From: Minisyncoccota bacterium
GTDB taxonomy: Bacteria; Patescibacteriota; Minisyncoccia; Phycocordibacterales; UBA9973
Assembly: GCA_018061035.1 (NCBI GenBank)
Contig: JAGOUX010000002.1
Location: forward strand, 24,722-88,721
Length of the DNA stretch: 64,000 nt
Direction of reading: 5' to 3'
The position numbers and the translations under genes were made by a program. Shown here piece by piece: positions 2,544-60,351 of this stretch. The first letter of the stretch is position 1, and each line of letters starts with the position of its first letter. Under the pieces are notes generated by a model. That model ran no database searches. It was not told the DNA's origin and saw nothing but the letters and a program-made list of their open reading frames with translations.

Positions 2544-2759
2544 TTACTTGAGCGGATCTATATGAACCTTTTGCCACGGGTGGCACCTTAAAATACGACG
2601 GCTTCCCAACAAAACCCCTTTGAAAACCCCATATTTAGCTATGGCTTGTTTGGTATACTCGGAACAAGTAGGGTAAAACACACAGCTTGGTTTAAATAAG
2701 TTAGATATATATCTTTGATAAAGATTAATTAATCTTATTGAGAATGTTTTTAATTTCAT
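2544..2759 (-). CDS. yidD: membrane protein insertion efficiency factor YidD
   Basis: 71 aa with conserved YidD motifs YQRYIS...CRFYPTCSEY (here CVFYPTCSEY) and RCHPW. Confidence 0.8.
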   Translation of the reverse strand: MKLKTFSIRLINLYQRYISNLFKPSCVFYPTCSEYTKQAIAKYGVFKGVLLGSRRILRCHPWQKVHIDPLK

Positions 2760-3087
2760 TATGTAAATATTGATTTATATCATTATTTTTACTTTTTCTC
2801 TGCCCAAATACTTGTAGTGAGTTTTTATTAAATATAAAAACACCTGTCATTGGGTGGGGGATTTGATCGAAATAGTTCTTAAGGACAACATACCCCCTCC
2901 TACGAAGCAAATTCCTTGAAACTGCCTTTTTACTGGTGGTTTTGGGAACAATAAAAGCTATTTTGGGAGTAGATTGGCCCTTTTGGATTATGTATTTAAA
3001 AGTTAGGTTGGGTGAATTAATAAAACGCCCATTTTTGAATATTAGGGCTATTTCATCTTTACTAACTCTACTTTTTTTAGGAAGCAT
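2725..3087 (-). CDS. rnpA: ribonuclease P protein component
   Basis: 120-aa basic protein between rpmH and yidD; RnpA-like KSRVSK...RNLLRRR motifs. Confidence 0.8.
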   Translation of the reverse strand: MLPKKSRVSKDEIALIFKNGRFINSPNLTFKYIIQKGQSTPKIAFIVPKTTSKKAVSRNLLRRRGYVVLKNYFDQIPHPMTGVFIFNKNSLQVFGQRKSKNNDINQYLHNEIKNILNKIN

Positions 3088-3229: not shown

Positions 3230-3313
3230 ATAGTAGAGTCTATAATAAAACTACTAATAAATCAATCTCGGTTTATATATAGGGTAGGGCGTACTCAAAC
3301 AGCCCTAGATCTT

Positions 3314-3322: not shown

Positions 3323-3389
3323 CTTTATCAACATACTTAATAAGGTTTAACAAGTTCCGAGCAATCTATTAATAGTATAATATGGAGCA

Positions 3390-3462
3390 ATGAATCCCGT
3401 TAGAAGTCTTACAGCGGGAAAATTAGTCGGTACAATTAATATTAATTAACTTCTAACGGGAT
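3390..3462 (+). promoter_or_regulatory. structured 5' leader element with a 19-codon uORF (MNPVRSLTAGKLVGTININ) and a 13-bp inverted repeat whose distal arm covers the dnaA ATG
   Basis: IR arms ATCCCGTTAGAAG (3394-3406) and CTTCTAACGGGAT (3450-3462). TATAAT at 3376-3381 places the uORF ATG (3390) near the TSS. A homologous element precedes msrB at 59892-59965. Confidence 0.4.
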
Positions 3463-4804
3463 GAATACAAAACAGCTGTGGAAAAATTGTCTCGCGGATA
3501 TTGAGACAGGCCTATCTAAGGCAAATTTCAGTACCTGGTTCAAAAATACCTCGATTCTTAAAGAAGAAGCTGGAATAATCTTTATCGGAGTACCAAATGA
3601 ATTCGTTCGAGACTGGCTTAAAAACAAATACCATAAGTTAATCACCAAAACCATCGCAGATGCTTTTGAAAACATGCGTGCGGTAGAATACATCATCACT
3701 AAAACCGAAGTTGAAAAGGATGAACCAGAAAGAACAGAAGAGGTTTTTGCAAATAAAGAGCTTCCGCTTAAGGATCTTTATATTAGCCCAGAAGACAATC
3801 TAAATCCTCGCTATCAGTTTGATTCGTTTATCGTTGGAGGCTTCAATGAGCTTGCTTATGCGGCAGGACAAGCAATTATAGATAATCCTGGTACAAAATA
3901 TAACCCATTTTTTATATATGGTGGAACAGGTTTAGGTAAAACCCACCTTATCCAAGCAATAGGAAACACTATAAAGACTAGATATCCAAATAAAAAGGTT
4001 CATTATATGACTTTGGAGAAGTTTGCGACTGATTTTATCAACTCTCTTCAAAACAACAAAGCTAATTCATTCAAAGAAAAGTATCGTAAATATGATCTTT
4101 TAATCATTGATGATATTCAATTTATTGGTAAGATGGAAAAAATTCAAGAAGAATTATTCCATACTTTTAATACTTTTCATGAGGCCAATAAGCAAATAAT
4201 CTTTTCATCCGACAAACACCCAAACTATATTCCAGAACTTGCTGATAGATTAAAATCTCGTTTTGCTGCAGGTATGATAGTAGACATATCAGAACCAGAA
4301 TACGAATCTCGTTTAGCTATTTTAAAGGTTAAATTAAGAGACCAAAACTTGGACTTAGACCAAAGCGTCGTTGAATACATTGCTGGGGCTATACAAGGCA
4401 ATATACGCGAATTAGAGGGTAGTCTAAACTCAATAGTCATGCAGTATCGACTCAAAAACAGAGCATTAACTCTTCCTGAAGTAAAAAACCTCCTTAAAAA
4501 CAACATGAGGCCAAAGAAAAATATCGCTATTAAGGATGTTGTAAAAATAGTTAGCGAACATTACAAACTCGAAGAATCTTCTGTTTATGAAAAAACTCGA
4601 AAGAAAGAAATTGTTCGAGCTAGGCAGGTGGTGATGTATCTACTTCGAGAGGATTTTAATGTGTCATACCCATTGATAGGACAGAAGTTGGGAGGGAAGG
4701 ACCATACTACAGTCATACACTCTTGTCTCAAGATCAAAGCAGACCTAAAAAACGATCCCCAGCTGATGCAGGAGTTGGAACAGATAAGAGTTATGTTTAA
4801 ATAG
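3461..4804 (+). CDS. dnaA: chromosomal replication initiator protein DnaA
   Basis: 447 aa with AAA+ Walker A GGTGLGKTHL, sensor motifs and the C-terminal DnaA-box binding domain; followed by dnaN. Confidence 0.95.
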   Translation: MNTKQLWKNCLADIETGLSKANFSTWFKNTSILKEEAGIIFIGVPNEFVRDWLKNKYHKLITKTIADAFENMRAVEYIITKTEVEKDEPERTEEVFANKELPLKDLYISPEDNLNPRYQFDSFIVGGFNELAYAAGQAIIDNPGTKYNPFFIYGGTGLGKTHLIQAIGNTIKTRYPNKKVHYMTLEKFATDFINSLQNNKANSFKEKYRKYDLLIIDDIQFIGKMEKIQEELFHTFNTFHEANKQIIFSSDKHPNYIPELADRLKSRFAAGMIVDISEPEYESRLAILKVKLRDQNLDLDQSVVEYIAGAIQGNIRELEGSLNSIVMQYRLKNRALTLPEVKNLLKNNMRPKKNIAIKDVVKIVSEHYKLEESSVYEKTRKKEIVRARQVVMYLLREDFNVSYPLIGQKLGGKDHTTVIHSCLKIKADLKNDPQLMQELEQIRVMFK

Positions 4805-17196: not shown

Positions 17197-19635
17197 ATGC
17201 CTAAACAACCCACGCAGAAGACCAAAACGCTTGTTCTCCTAGACTCTCATGCGATAATCCATCGCGCGTATCATGCGTTGCCTGAATTTCTTTCCTCTTC
17301 TGGGGAGCCGACAGGTGCACTGTATGGACTTTCGACAATGATTATGAAGATCATTACCGACCTCAAGCCGGACTATATTGTGGCTTGTTACGATCTTCCT
17401 CAGAAAACATTTCGTCATGAAGCATACGATGCTTATAAGGCGGGCCGAGCGAAAACAGATGATGCTCTGATTGTACAGCTCAAAAAATCAAGGGAAATAT
17501 TCAATGCATTCAATATACCGATTTATGACGCACCCGGATTTGAGGCCGATGATGTGTTGGGAACAATTGTTTCTATACTAAAGAAAGATAAAAATGTAAA
17601 TATAATCATTGCTTCAGGTGATATGGACACCATGCAACTTGTCGACGGCAAGAAAGTGCAGATCTACACTCTTAAGAAGGGGATCAACGATACTATACTC
17701 TACGATGAAGATAAGGTAGTAGAACGTTTTGGGTTTAAGCCAATTCTTCTCCCAGACTACAAAGGCTTGCGAGGTGATCCATCCGACAACATTATCGGTA
17801 TCAAAGGCATAGGAGAGAAGACAGCCACGAACCTCATCACAACATTTGGCACTATTGAAGAAATATATAAAAAGTTGAAAAAAGATAGCACTGCGCTTAA
17901 GGCAGCCGGACTTACCCCACGATTAGCTGAGCTTATAAAAGAAAACGAAGAGGAGGCAATGTTTTCCAAAACTCTCGCGACGATTAGAAGGGACGCACCA
18001 GTGGATTTTTCTTTGCCCGAGAAAACTTTTTGGGAGAATTCTGATTTGAAAAAAATTGAGAAAGTTTTTATTCAATTCGAGTTTCGATCTTTATTTGCTC
18101 GATTAAAAAGTTTTTTTAGTAATGGAGAAGGAAAGACTGAGAAGGAGATAAAGAAAGAAATCACAGTGGCCGGAAGTGCCTCCTCAATGTTTGGTGATGG
18201 TACAAAAACTCCGGCTCCTGATAGTGTAAAATTACAAGAAGCGAGTATTGCATTATGGCTGGTTAATTCTGATATTAGTAATCCAACGATCGAAGACATT
18301 CTCATGTTTGGCAAAACAGCATCTTTCGACACAGCATATGACCTTATTTTTAAAAAACTTAAAGAAAGAAATCTCGAGAAAGTATACGAAGAAATTGAGA
18401 AGCCCATCATCATAATAGTCAAAGAAATGGAGGAACACGGTATTCTCATAGATCAGAAATATTTTGAAGATCTTTCCAAGGAGTATCACAAAGAACTAGA
18501 GAGTCTTACTAAGAAGATTTATGCGTATGCGGGGACAGAATTCAATATCAATTCTCCTAAACAACTCGGGGAAGTCTTATTTGGAACTATGGGTATTAAA
18601 ATGCCGGGTAAAATAGCCAAAAAGAACGCAAGTGGAAATTTCTCAACCAAAGTTTCTGTTCTCGAAGAACTCGAGGAAGGCAATCCGATTATCAAAGAAA
18701 TTATGTCTTATCGTGAACTTCAAAAACTGGTGTCTACATATATAGATGTTATCCCTAAAATGGTAGGCGAAGACGGGCGACTTCATTCTAGGTTTTTACA
18801 AAATGCCACAACTACTGGCAGATTTTCTTCTATTGATCCTAATTTACAAAATCTGCCAATAAAAACTGAGTCCGGTCGTCGTATTAGAAACGGCTTCATT
18901 GCAGCGAAAGGCTACAAACTTTCAGCTTTTGATTATAGTCAAATAGAGCTTCGTGTCGCTGCAATATTGTCCGGCGACAAGAAAATGACGGAGATCTTTC
19001 GCCAGAAGGAAGATATTCATGCCGGCGTGGCCTCAATTGTCTTTGGTGTACCTATAGACAAAGTGGATAGGGAAATGCGTCGAAAAGCCAAAGTCATAAA
19101 TTTCGGCATTATTTATGGAATGGGAGTTTCAGCTCTCCGAAAAAACCTCGGTGGTACACGCGAAGAAGCACAAAAATTTTATAATGATTATTTTGAACAA
19201 TTCTCAGGAGTGCGGGATTATTTAGAAAGTGTAAAAAGGTCAGCCGAAAAGAATACATATATCGAAACACTCTTTGGGAGACGAAGATATTTTCCGAATA
19301 TTAATTCGAGGATACCATTCTTGAAAAATATGGCCGAGCGTACCGCTATCAATGCTCCGATACAGGGAACAGCTACCGCAGACATTATCAAGCTTGCTAT
19401 CAGATATGCGGATGATGATATTAAAAAGGCTGGACTTTCGAATAAGGTCCATCTCGCGCTCCAAATCCACGATGAACTTGTGTATGAGATAGAAGAGTCT
19501 GTTTTAGAAAAGGCAAATAGTATTATACAAAAAGCGATGGAGGGAGTTTTAGAGCGTTCCTTTCTTAAATATAAGACCGAGATACCACTAATCGTTCACT
19601 TTGGCTCAGGAAATAATTTTGGCGAAGTGAAATAA
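17197..19635 (+). CDS. polA: DNA polymerase I (5'-3' exonuclease + polymerase domains)
   Basis: N-terminal FEN-like domain (LLDSHAIIHRAYHAL, GIGEKTA) and Pol A motifs A/B/C (RRKAKVINFGIIYG, LQIHDELV). Confidence 0.9.
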   Translation: MPKQPTQKTKTLVLLDSHAIIHRAYHALPEFLSSSGEPTGALYGLSTMIMKIITDLKPDYIVACYDLPQKTFRHEAYDAYKAGRAKTDDALIVQLKKSREIFNAFNIPIYDAPGFEADDVLGTIVSILKKDKNVNIIIASGDMDTMQLVDGKKVQIYTLKKGINDTILYDEDKVVERFGFKPILLPDYKGLRGDPSDNIIGIKGIGEKTATNLITTFGTIEEIYKKLKKDSTALKAAGLTPRLAELIKENEEEAMFSKTLATIRRDAPVDFSLPEKTFWENSDLKKIEKVFIQFEFRSLFARLKSFFSNGEGKTEKEIKKEITVAGSASSMFGDGTKTPAPDSVKLQEASIALWLVNSDISNPTIEDILMFGKTASFDTAYDLIFKKLKERNLEKVYEEIEKPIIIIVKEMEEHGILIDQKYFEDLSKEYHKELESLTKKIYAYAGTEFNINSPKQLGEVLFGTMGIKMPGKIAKKNASGNFSTKVSVLEELEEGNPIIKEIMSYRELQKLVSTYIDVIPKMVGEDGRLHSRFLQNATTTGRFSSIDPNLQNLPIKTESGRRIRNGFIAAKGYKLSAFDYSQIELRVAAILSGDKKMTEIFRQKEDIHAGVASIVFGVPIDKVDREMRRKAKVINFGIIYGMGVSALRKNLGGTREEAQKFYNDYFEQFSGVRDYLESVKRSAEKNTYIETLFGRRRYFPNINSRIPFLKNMAERTAINAPIQGTATADIIKLAIRYADDDIKKAGLSNKVHLALQIHDELVYEIEESVLEKANSIIQKAMEGVLERSFLKYKTEIPLIVHFGSGNNFGEVK

Positions 19636-37084: not shown

Positions 37085-37169
37085 CCAATTAAAAAATTAA
37101 AATTAATAATTATTATCTTTACGCATAAACCCGTAAATTTTCTAACGGGACGCGTGGTATAATTGTAGT

Positions 37170-38012
37170 ATGGATCGCATTAGAAACATATTAATACTCA
37201 CTCTTTTAACTTCAGGACTATTCTTTGCGCCATTGTACTCTTATGCTGCAACCCCGGTCAAGATTCTGCTTGTTCCTGGGCATGACAATGAAGTCTGGGG
37301 TGCTCAGTATGGCAATGTAAAAGAGGCAGCAATGAATCTAGCGGTGGCAAGCAGAATATACAATATCCTTAAAAAGGATAAGCATTTTGAGGTATATATT
37401 ACACGCGACATCTCAGGCTACACCAAAGAATTTTCCGATTTTTTAACTACCAAAAGAGAAGAAATAAATGCATTTAGAGCCGATCTCAAGAAAAATATGG
37501 TCGCTAAAATTGAAAGTGGTGAATTCATCCAAAAGGAAAATGTTCCTCACAACAACGCCGGAGAAGATGCTGCTGTTATGCTTTATGGAATTAATAAATG
37601 GGCCAACGAGAACAAGATGGATGCTGTGATCCACATTCACTTTAACGATTATCCCAGGAAGACTAGCTGGACTATAGGCAAGCACACAGGCTTTGCCATA
37701 TATATGCCCGATGGCGAGCTAGAGAATTGGTTTGAAAGTGGGCAATTGGCTGCAGATATATATACTCAGCTTCGAAAAAAGTATCAGACCAGCACCTACG
37801 AAGAAGAGCTCGGCGGGTTAGTTGCAGATCAAAAACTTATTGCAATTGGCGCCAATGGAAGCCTTTCTTCAAGCGTGCGGTCCGTTTTAGTAGAGTATGG
37901 ATATATGTACGAGAAGAAATTCCGTAATTACACAACTCGTCATCAAGCCTATGCTGATATGGCAAAGCTAACAGCTCAAGCTATAAAGAATTACTTTTCC
38001 CCAAAAAATTAG
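37170..38012 (+). CDS. N-acetylmuramoyl-L-alanine amidase (Amidase_3 family) with signal peptide
   Basis: ILLVPGHDNEVWGAQ, E-rich helix and DAVIHIHFND zinc-ligand pattern of Amidase_3; TGgTATAAT extended -10 at 37153-37161. Confidence 0.7.
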   Translation: MDRIRNILILTLLTSGLFFAPLYSYAATPVKILLVPGHDNEVWGAQYGNVKEAAMNLAVASRIYNILKKDKHFEVYITRDISGYTKEFSDFLTTKREEINAFRADLKKNMVAKIESGEFIQKENVPHNNAGEDAAVMLYGINKWANENKMDAVIHIHFNDYPRKTSWTIGKHTGFAIYMPDGELENWFESGQLAADIYTQLRKKYQTSTYEEELGGLVADQKLIAIGANGSLSSSVRSVLVEYGYMYEKKFRNYTTRHQAYADMAKLTAQAIKNYFSPKN

Positions 38013-59783: not shown

Positions 59784-59891
59784 TCGAGCCGCACCAGCCA
59801 CAGTATCACAATAGGTGCAATCAACACCGCCACAAAGAGAAATCTTGTGGCGATTTCTCTTTTAAATGTACAAATGAGTTATAATAATTAT

Positions 59892-59965
59892 ATGGATCCC
59901 GTTGGAAATTCGAAAACGGGAAGTTTTAAGATTAATTATTACTAAGTAAAATTTCTACGGGATGG
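59892..59965 (+). promoter_or_regulatory. second copy of the structured leader element: 17-codon uORF (MDPVGNSKTGSFKINYY) plus inverted repeat whose distal arm covers the msrB ATG
   Basis: Homologous to 3390-3462 along its length (GGATCCCGTTGGAA ... CGGGAA ... ATTAATTA ... TTCTACGGGATGG); TATAAT at 59880-59885 is about 7 nt upstream of the uORF ATG. Confidence 0.4.
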
Positions 59966-60351
59966 ATATAAACGAAGAAGAATTGAAAAATAAATTAACT
60001 CCTGAAGAATATGCAGTGTTGCGCCAGAAGGGAACCGAGGCTCCTGGCACAGGTAAGTATCTGCATGAAAAAAGGCAAGGAACATACGCGTGTAAAGTCT
60101 GTGGGGCAGAACTTTTTCCCTCAGACACCAAATTTGATTCCGGAACAGGATGGCCATCTTTCGATCAGGCTATCCCAGGAGCAGTAAAAGAGATCACTGA
60201 TGATTCCCATGGCATGAGTCGCACCGAAGTGGTGTGCGCGAATTGCGGTTCGCATCTCGGCCATGTATTTGATGATGGCCCTACCGAGACAGGTAAGAGA
60301 TATTGCATGAATTCTGTTTGTTTAGATTTGAAAGCAAAGGACGGAGAGTAA
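59962..60351 (+). CDS. msrB: peptide-methionine (R)-S-oxide reductase MsrB
   Basis: Two CxxC zinc motifs ([21 protein letters not shown]) and catalytic region GTGWPSF. Confidence 0.85.

Follow-up and report, generated by a model that had tools for sequence, protein, structure and literature searches.

A repeat that rebuilds the start codons of dnaA and msrB in a Minisyncoccota bacterium is very probably a non-autonomous DNA transposon (MITE)

The window considered here, a stretch of 64,000 nucleotides of contig JAGOUX010000002.1 from a Minisyncoccota bacterium, contains the genes dnaA and msrB, and the sequences lying directly upstream of them (window 3390–3466 and 59892–59967, respectively) were found to be homologous by sequence comparison. 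The layout common to both consists of TATAAT, 6–8 nt, ATGRAT, CCCG…CGGG, a second ATGRAT and the gene (Table 1). Upstream of msrB the sequence is TATAAT, a 6-nt spacer and ATGGAT-CCCGTTGGAAAT…ATTTCTACGGG-ATGGAT-ATA…; upstream of dnaA it is TATAAT, an 8-nt spacer and ATGAAT-CCCGTTAGAAGT…ACTTCTAACGGG-ATGAAT-ACA…, the repeated unit being bordered on each side by ATGGAT in the first case and by ATGAAT in the second. The unit at dnaA has a perfect 14-bp inverted repeat (3394–3407/3449–3462), and the predicted RNA fold of this leader (−20.9 kcal/mol, z = −3.5) has a stem that takes in A and U of the dnaA ATG. In the msrB leader, the left arm ATCCCGTTGGAAAT (59896–59909) pairs with ATTTCTACGGGAT (59951–59963) with one bulge and one G.U pair. 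The distal arm overlaps the msrB ATG, as the initial annotation had stated, and A and T of this codon lie inside the stem (RNA fold −16.4 kcal/mol, z = −1.7).

Table 1. Coordinates of the features discussed (window positions, unless a locus of a relative is named)
Feature	Position	Strand	Basis or remark
-10 hexamer TATAAT, dnaA promoter	3376–3381	+	8 nt before first ATG; most of 80 orthologues keep TAGTATAAT-N7-8-ATG
Short ORF MNPVRSLTAGKLVGTININ*, probably original dnaA start and read-in to element	3390–3449	+	Sequence
Left target-site duplication TGAA at dnaA	3391–3394	+	Empty sites are ATGAATACAAAA in orthologues
dnaA, 447 aa	3461–4804	+	Start ATG 3461
Probable MITE copy at dnaA, 67 bp, T-CCCGTTAGAAGT…ACTTCTAACGGG-A, intact repeats	3395–3461	+	Sequence, inverted repeat, fold
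Right target-site duplication TGAA at dnaA	3462–3465	+	Flank statistics
Probable relic of the family, 20 nt, CCCGTAAATTTTCTAACGGG	37131–37150	+	Exact 11-mer match to right terminal repeat; less certain than the remaining features
-10 hexamer TATAAT, msrB promoter	59880–59885	+	6 nt before first ATG; sequence
Short ORF, 17 codons and TAA, MDPVGNSKTGSFKINYY*	59892–59945	+	Stop codon at 59943–59945
Left copy of 4-bp target-site duplication, TGGA	59893–59896	+	Flank statistics, 168 copies; L206 empty site ATGGAC
Probable MITE copy at msrB, 66 bp, T-CCCGTTGGAAAT…ATTTCTACGGG-A	59897–59962	+	Family definition
Right copy of target-site duplication, TGGA	59963–59966	+	With the last A of the element rebuilds ATG-GA..
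msrB, 129 aa, PF01641 SelR	59962–60351	+	Start ATG 59962
Terminal repeat pair of the family, other written form: YCCCGTTAGAAG … CTTCTAACGGGR			
yidD copies in relatives	L017 9246–9314, L022 9281–9349, L027 7441–7509, L035 324–400, L044 9193–9269		

The block-by-block alignment of the two leaders, described in the initial annotation, was borne out. The two copies match at 44 of 62 aligned positions, and the alignment score of 18 should be compared with −8 ± 4, maximum 6, in 1000 shuffles; restricted to the interiors, the agreement is 23 of 37 positions (p ~0.02). The short ORF starting with M-[DN]-P-V after TATAAT was likewise found at both genes. Consensus scans for internal promoters gave only CTTACA-17-TACAAT, weak and non-significant, in the dnaA copy and none in the msrB copy. 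No other full copies occur within the window, and a search for further ones there added only a probable 20-nt relic. It contains the exact TTCTAACGGGA 11-mer (chance expectation about 0.03 exact matches), shows no target duplication that could be recognised and is located just upstream of the -10 hexamer (37157–37162) of the gene at 37170. At 15 of 18 positions, the initial codons of this gene (ATGGATCGCATTAGAAAC) agree with ATGGAT followed by the left terminal repeat. Judging from its sequence, the region 37131–37188 may be an old insertion, the left end of which was turned into the N-terminus of a signal-peptide protein.

Outside the window, the element is abundant. Searching for CCCG…CGGG inverted repeats in fetched loci and scanning metagenomes with CCCGTTAGAAG-N40-70-CTTCTAACGGG, which matched at least 120 stretches, gave at least 169 unique copies from related Paceibacteria/Nomurabacteria-like genomes and metagenomes; the pooled set of 169 unique copies is limited to lengths of up to 130 bp. 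One locus of a relative, L017, carries at least 5 copies in 21 kb. The case considered in the initial annotation, that only two copies exist, is set aside by a count of more than 170.

The termini are 13-bp inverted repeats, Y-CCCGTTAGAAG…CTTCTAACGGG-R, placed around a variable interior, and co-varying variants of them occur (CCCGTACGAAG/CTTCGTACGGG and CCCGTTAGAGA/TCTCTAACGGG). Repeat positions 1–12 pair in more than 97% of copies; position 12 is paired in 81 of 83 copies, and pairing decays beyond it. The bases next to CCCG and CGGG are complementary (T…A or C…G) in 97% of 168 copies, and the terminal Y…R therefore belongs to the element. Flank positions 2–5 form a direct repeat matching at 77–84% per position in the same 168 copies, and this 4-bp duplication of the target is perfect in 111 of them against 13.2 expected with shuffled partners. 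Its consensus is TNNA, varying among copies and matching within a copy; the most frequent forms are TGAA/TTCA (44), TCAA/TTGA (23), TCCA/TGGA (11) and TAAA/TTTA (10). At the two ends of the apparent 6-nt repeat, matching drops to 47–57% of copies. Models with a duplication of 6 bp or 2 bp were rejected, the per-position statistics favouring 4 bp with an element-borne terminal Y…R. Correspondingly, the dnaA site is parsed as A-[TGAA]-(T CCCG…CGGG A)-[TGAA]-T and the msrB site as A-[TGGA]-(T CCCG…CGGG A)-[TGGA]-T.

The size of copies is 45–276 bp, usually 63–79 bp (modes); beside the class of 45–130 bp there are forms of 274–276 bp and minimal forms of 26–27 bp. The latter are composed of two repeats with a loop of 3–5 nt and code for PVRSxASNG inside proteins. 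Some arrangements are unusual (L135 11109–11240, L154 5198–5314, L149 4800–4825, L157 6089–6115 and 8424–8450, L187 2615–2641), such as an in-frame tandem double copy in an ORF of 1258 aa and a copy nested within another copy. A GC-rich 69-nt subfamily (yidD of L022, L027 and L017; L099, L109, L127, L146) has two internal hairpins, which change in a compensatory manner between genomes (CACTCAC…GTGAG and CACTCGC…GCGAG), and the interior structure is thus maintained in this subfamily.

None of the copies contains a transposase gene, and their interiors are too short for a protein. An autonomous partner or a transposase with matching ends was not found in 2.3 Mb, in which repeat pairs 300–6000 bp apart and solo repeats were inspected. 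Long-range pairs with matching duplications proved to be separate short copies around ordinary genes, and the solo repeats turned out to be relics or minimal forms. Terminal inverted repeats, a copy-specific target duplication, small size without transposase, and dispersed copies together with empty sites were all observed, so that the element passes as a MITE in every testable respect except for an identified autonomous partner. In our opinion, it is very probable that both elements of the window are copies of a non-autonomous DNA transposon (MITE) widespread among Paceibacteria/Nomurabacteria-like bacteria of the candidate phyla radiation (CPR). The terminal repeats of the msrB copy have decayed by one substitution and a 1-nt deletion, as expected of an ageing, immobile copy.

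Orthologous loci provide the filled and the empty sites. Many proteins under the names Candidatus Paceibacterota, Nomurabacteria or Minisyncoccia share 84–92% identity with DnaA of the window, which therefore comes from a CPR bacterium, and 80 orthologous dnaA loci from species-representative genomes were compared by reading 160 nt upstream of each; the same-strain contigs L001–L004 have leaders identical to that of the window and are for this reason uninformative. About 71 of the 80 orthologues carry no element and have the structure TAGTATAAT-N7-8-ATGRATACAAAA, i.e. TAGTATAAT, 7–8 nt and ATG(A/G)ATACAAAA. These plain sites, also written TAGTATAAT-N7-8-ATGAATACAAAA, look leaderless, and with a -10 box only 7–8 nt from the ATG the mRNA must be leaderless or nearly so. 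Nine dnaA sites are filled (L017, L028, L035, L038, L044, L064, L066, L069 and the window), all at one identical point, ATGRAT/CCCG…CGGG/ATGRAT, with interiors of 64 to ~150 nt that are strongly divergent between genomes. On the DnaA neighbour-joining tree the genomes with filled sites are scattered and have empty sister taxa, which indicates several independent gains; different subfamilies of the element are present in these sites.

The msrB orthologue of L206 is 88% identical and syntenic (L19–hypothetical–msrB), and its site is empty, TAGAAT-ATTTTT-ATGGACATAAACGAAGAAGAA. The empty dnaA and msrB sites show that both copies of the window are lineage-specific insertions and not conserved leaders. 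Of the two explanations offered in the initial annotation, the small mobile cassette is therefore upheld by the terminal inverted repeats, the target duplication, the many copies at unrelated genes and these empty sites. The shared post-transcriptional control element is not supported, in view of the same ~71 of 80 dnaA orthologues and the syntenic msrB orthologue, as well as of a variable uORF, no G.U excess in the stem and no Rfam match.

The reverse situation was found at yidD, where the site of the window is empty and those of L017, L022 and L027 are filled. The reading frame continues across these 69-nt copies (…IN-PVRSRSPQGDRST.LL.RAASNG-INFYQ…). L035 and L044 have 77-nt copies, which include a stop codon yet provide an ATG in frame. 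In the window, the rnpA stop overlaps the yidD start (~2725–2760, minus strand), and the element in the yidD 5′ end of relatives gives either an in-frame read-through adding 25 aa or a new in-frame ATG. Another feature of this region is a pair of DnaA-box-like 9-mers (TTATCCACA…TTATCAACA, window 3285–3305), found at the same position in L005–L085 and kept ~90–110 nt upstream of dnaA in nearly all 80 orthologues; it probably serves autoregulation or belongs to an origin-proximal box cluster. In two close relatives, L005 (1–7900) and the P0002 contig, a T4SS-like cluster (PrgI, TraC-like, TraG P-loop, T4SS pilin) lies just upstream of jag-yidC-rnpA-dnaA, and several T4SS-cluster genes of L017, L018 and L027 have the element at their start codons.

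The flanks show the course of insertion. The element landed in A/TGGA/T at msrB and in A/TGAA/T at dnaA, i.e. in the start and second codons of genes transcribed from a -10 box 6–8 nt upstream of the original ATG. The TATAAT of msrB is predicted to be the original leaderless-type promoter, on the basis of TAGAAT-N6-ATGGACATAAAC without insertion in the L206 orthologue. Duplication of the target together with the final A of the element, which in the msrB copy is the A of the msrB ATG, rebuilt an intact ATG-RA. ahead of each ORF. The original ATG stayed beside the promoter, now opening a short ORF into the element; at msrB this ORF is the original start and second codon followed by read-in, in other words a by-product of insertion. 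The terminal base and the TG.. duplication explain the doubled ATGRAT and the M-[DN]-P-V peptide, and the hairpin and the arm overlapping the gene ATG likewise follow from the geometry of insertion. As to the conservation of the peptide start, stressed in the initial annotation, M-[DN]-P-V is indeed shared; it is forced by the target (ATG-RA.) and the element end (T-CCCGTT), and the rest of the peptides differs.

Transcription probably still proceeds from the old promoter, and dnaA and msrB are probably translated from the rebuilt, now internal, Shine-Dalgarno-less ATG, either by direct internal initiation or by re-initiation after the uORF, the stop of which is 11 nt (dnaA) or 16 nt (msrB) from the gene start. 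Of 58 ORFs in the window, 18 have a -10-like hexamer 4–11 nt before the start and only 10 have an SD-like motif; ORFs at 17197, 35701, 37170, 52671(-) and 60389 may serve as examples of leaderless or SD-less genes. The host genome thus appears to use leaderless or SD-less initiation widely, and in a largely SD-less genome initiation at an internal SD-less AUG would be routine. In a study with Caulobacter reporters (PMC8459731), the accessibility of the start codon controls leaderless initiation, from which it follows that the stem probably costs some expression; the hairpin would lower expression rather than act as a switch.

Copies inside genes are another part of the family. Among the 169 copies, 28 are intragenic with the frame left open, a further 12 being ambiguous, and the inserted length is a multiple of three in 27 of the 28. 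Only two phases are used by in-frame copies, PVRS…SNG (28 copies) or PLE…LTG (12 copies), the third being unused because the repeat has TAG there. Such frame-preserving, stop-free copies bear a signature of selection typical of selfish insertion. The two copies of the window add 70 and 71 nt and contain stop codons, and they do not belong to this in-frame type.

The most frequent location is a start codon, a copy being assigned to this class when it stands directly before the start codon of an ORF of at least 60 aa. The class includes 83 of the 169 copies (71 and 12 ambiguous) against roughly 5% expected, and 58 copies lie elsewhere. The start-codon copies precede 72 distinct N-termini, including those of dnaA, dnaN, ruvC, a penicillin-binding protein (PBP), jag, an aminoacyl-tRNA synthetase and T4SS genes. 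The last base of the element (A or G) and a duplication starting with TG rebuild ATG or GTG; many copies read …ATGAAC/element/GTGAAA…. The availability of sites was estimated in 1.48 Mb of related sequence, where 18,406 TNNA sites in non-ORF DNA were counted vs 605 on start codons (3.2%); this share rises to 5.2% when R…Y flanks are required and to 19% when only TGAA sites are considered. The observed split of 83 at starts vs 58 elsewhere is more than 10-fold above site availability (3–5%), and TGAA duplications are found 39 times at starts and 5 times elsewhere (p ~6e-23).

The orientation of these copies is not random. In pairs of start-codon copies with similar interiors, many of them at different genes, one orientation relative to the gene was found in 20 of 20 cases, and the interiors are A-rich on the sense strand (0.37 A vs 0.29 T; A exceeds T in 58 of 83). 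The repeated insertions at dnaA fit the same pattern. Given the excess at start codons and the uniform orientation, neutral insertion followed by purifying selection may be an incomplete account. Purifying selection in a compact genome explains part of the bias, as start codons are presumably among the few places where an insertion spares the gene. Trapping may add to this, since only exact excision could remove a copy that is lodged between promoter and essential ORF. A transposon specialised for translation starts is a further proposal, in which either the transposase recognises start regions or the start-codon copies are retained for converting leaderless or tightly coupled genes, such as dnaA, to uORF/hairpin control; it is conceivable, and we regard it as rather unlikely.

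It may also be supposed that the insertions, although derived from a MITE, were co-opted and that the hairpin and the uORF provide translational control at dnaA and msrB. The stem would be opened by ribosomes that initiate at the leaderless 5′ AUG, and the gene AUG would become accessible, which would couple expression to the capacity for leaderless initiation. The burial of A and U of the gene ATG in the stem agrees with this, as do the over-representation of start codons among the copies, their uniform orientation (20/20 pairs), the A-rich sense-strand interiors and the role of start-codon accessibility seen with Caulobacter reporters (PMC8459731). Stops of uORFs 11–16 nt before the gene at the two window copies and 4 nt before it in 12 others, where the uORF ends at TAA of the right repeat, would also fit. 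The remaining uORFs stop anywhere from 11 to 90 nt upstream of the gene start, and frame, length and stop position vary freely among the 83 start-codon copies, against what co-option would lead one to expect. In fact, the upstream start codon is kept in 66 of 83 and absent in 17; it is in frame with the gene in 26 of the 66, and 12 of these 26 are open and give an N-terminal extension. TATAAT is present close upstream in only 12 of 83 copies, so a leaderless promoter is not required and most copies are not at leaderless promoters. Stem mismatches on the sense strand comprise 4 G.T vs 8 A.C, i.e. no excess of G.U over A.C that would speak for selection at the RNA level. Together with the decaying repeats of the msrB copy and the empty state of most orthologous dnaA and msrB loci, these data make co-option improbable; a regulatory side effect of the insertions may exist.

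Spread of a REP/REPIN-like palindrome through a single-strand transposase of the RAYT/IS200 type, or through another mechanism without target duplication, could account for the minimal hairpin forms of 26–27 nt, and the orientation bias is reminiscent of strand-specific single-stranded-DNA elements. Such a mechanism is very unlikely in view of the 4-bp direct repeat, which is copy-specific yet matched within the copy (111/168 vs 13 expected) and takes the form of TGAA, TCAA, TCCA, TAAA and others. This is the signature of insertion at a staggered cut and not of insertion beside a fixed tetranucleotide. The use of TTCTAACGGGA as one half of an operator pair, i.e. a protein-binding site, was also considered and dropped given the target duplications and empty sites.

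A vertically inherited cis-regulatory leader RNA before dnaA and msrB, of the type of a uORF attenuator or a riboswitch, would explain why the copies of the window have the same succession of blocks and similarly starting short ORFs. Known uORF/hairpin leaders and attenuators also have a short ORF followed by a stem overlapping the downstream start codon. Unlike them, the element is not conserved at orthologous loci, nor in its peptide or frame, and has target duplications in its flanks; it occurs at no fewer than 72 unrelated genes and inside ORFs. The Rfam search of the window at the gathering threshold gave tRNAs only, and permissive scans of both leaders (E ≤ 1) gave no match, and a known RNA family was rejected. 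An inherited leader is hardly tenable, and the empty orthologous sites and target duplications already refute it. Programmed translational bypass, with a start at the first ATG-RAT, a hop over the hairpin and landing on the second ATG-RAT, to be compared with T4 gene 60 and mitochondrial byp elements, can practically be dismissed despite the identical ATGRAT flanking the hairpin in both window copies, for the repeat is accounted for by target duplication, the second codon often differs (ATGAAT/ATGAAA, ATGAAC/GTGAAA) and leaves take-off and landing codons unmatched, no stop codon follows the putative take-off codon and 17 of 83 copies are without any upstream start codon.

The reading of both elements as MITE copies can be placed among known systems. 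Rickettsia palindromic elements (RPEs), the behaviour of which inside protein-coding genes is summarised in PMC10969869, are also short palindromic mobile repeats of a reduced genome that survive in genes as in-frame stop-free insertions and add a segment of peptide. Their hosts are Alphaproteobacteria and not Patescibacteria, and they measure ~100–150 bp vs mostly 63–79 bp. The likeness is one of behaviour and concerns the intragenic copies of the family, the two window copies being not in frame and containing stops. Unlike RPEs, the family has a clear 4-bp target duplication and is most commonly sited exactly on the start codon, which the element rebuilds. Classical MITEs (Correia/CREE of Neisseria, RUP/BOX, ERIC, MITEAba12) share with it terminal inverted repeats, a short target duplication, the lack of transposase and many copies, as well as hairpin-forming transcripts and frequent proximity to genes, the 5′ leaders of which they alter. 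They are overwhelmingly intergenic, in contrast to the family, and a cognate insertion sequence is known for several of them, whereas none was found for the family (2.3 Mb). By analogy, the in-frame copies may be said to resemble RPEs in function and the leader-forming copies to resemble Correia-type MITEs. No classical MITE was found described in the literature as regenerating a start codon or occupying starts in about half of its copies, and the term 'start codon' is absent from a MITE review of 2024 (PMC10969869). Within an incomplete coverage of the literature, neither this family, nor MITEs in CPR bacteria, nor a start-codon-regenerating MITE was met with, and an abundant and previously undescribed MITE family appears to exist in Patescibacteria.

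Summarizing these data, it may be concluded that the apparent shared regulatory leader of dnaA and msrB was a false lead, which is now removed. Doubled start codons, short 'conserved' uORFs and inserts of 20–25 aa of the PVRS…SNG type should be treated with caution in the annotation of CPR genomes as footprints of a transposon. How SD-less and leaderless translation tolerates a 5′ hairpin, and whether gene expression in CPR bacteria is shaped by mobile DNA, can be tested on the basis of the 10-fold start-codon excess, the constant orientation and the repeated insertions at dnaA. If a transposon specialised for translation starts were real, CPR bacteria would be using a portable start-codon cassette to change, time and again, how essential genes are expressed. 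In ultra-small genomes the family persists on start codons that it rebuilds or within genes without breaking the frame, and dnaA, dnaN and ruvC show that essential genes are among its sites.
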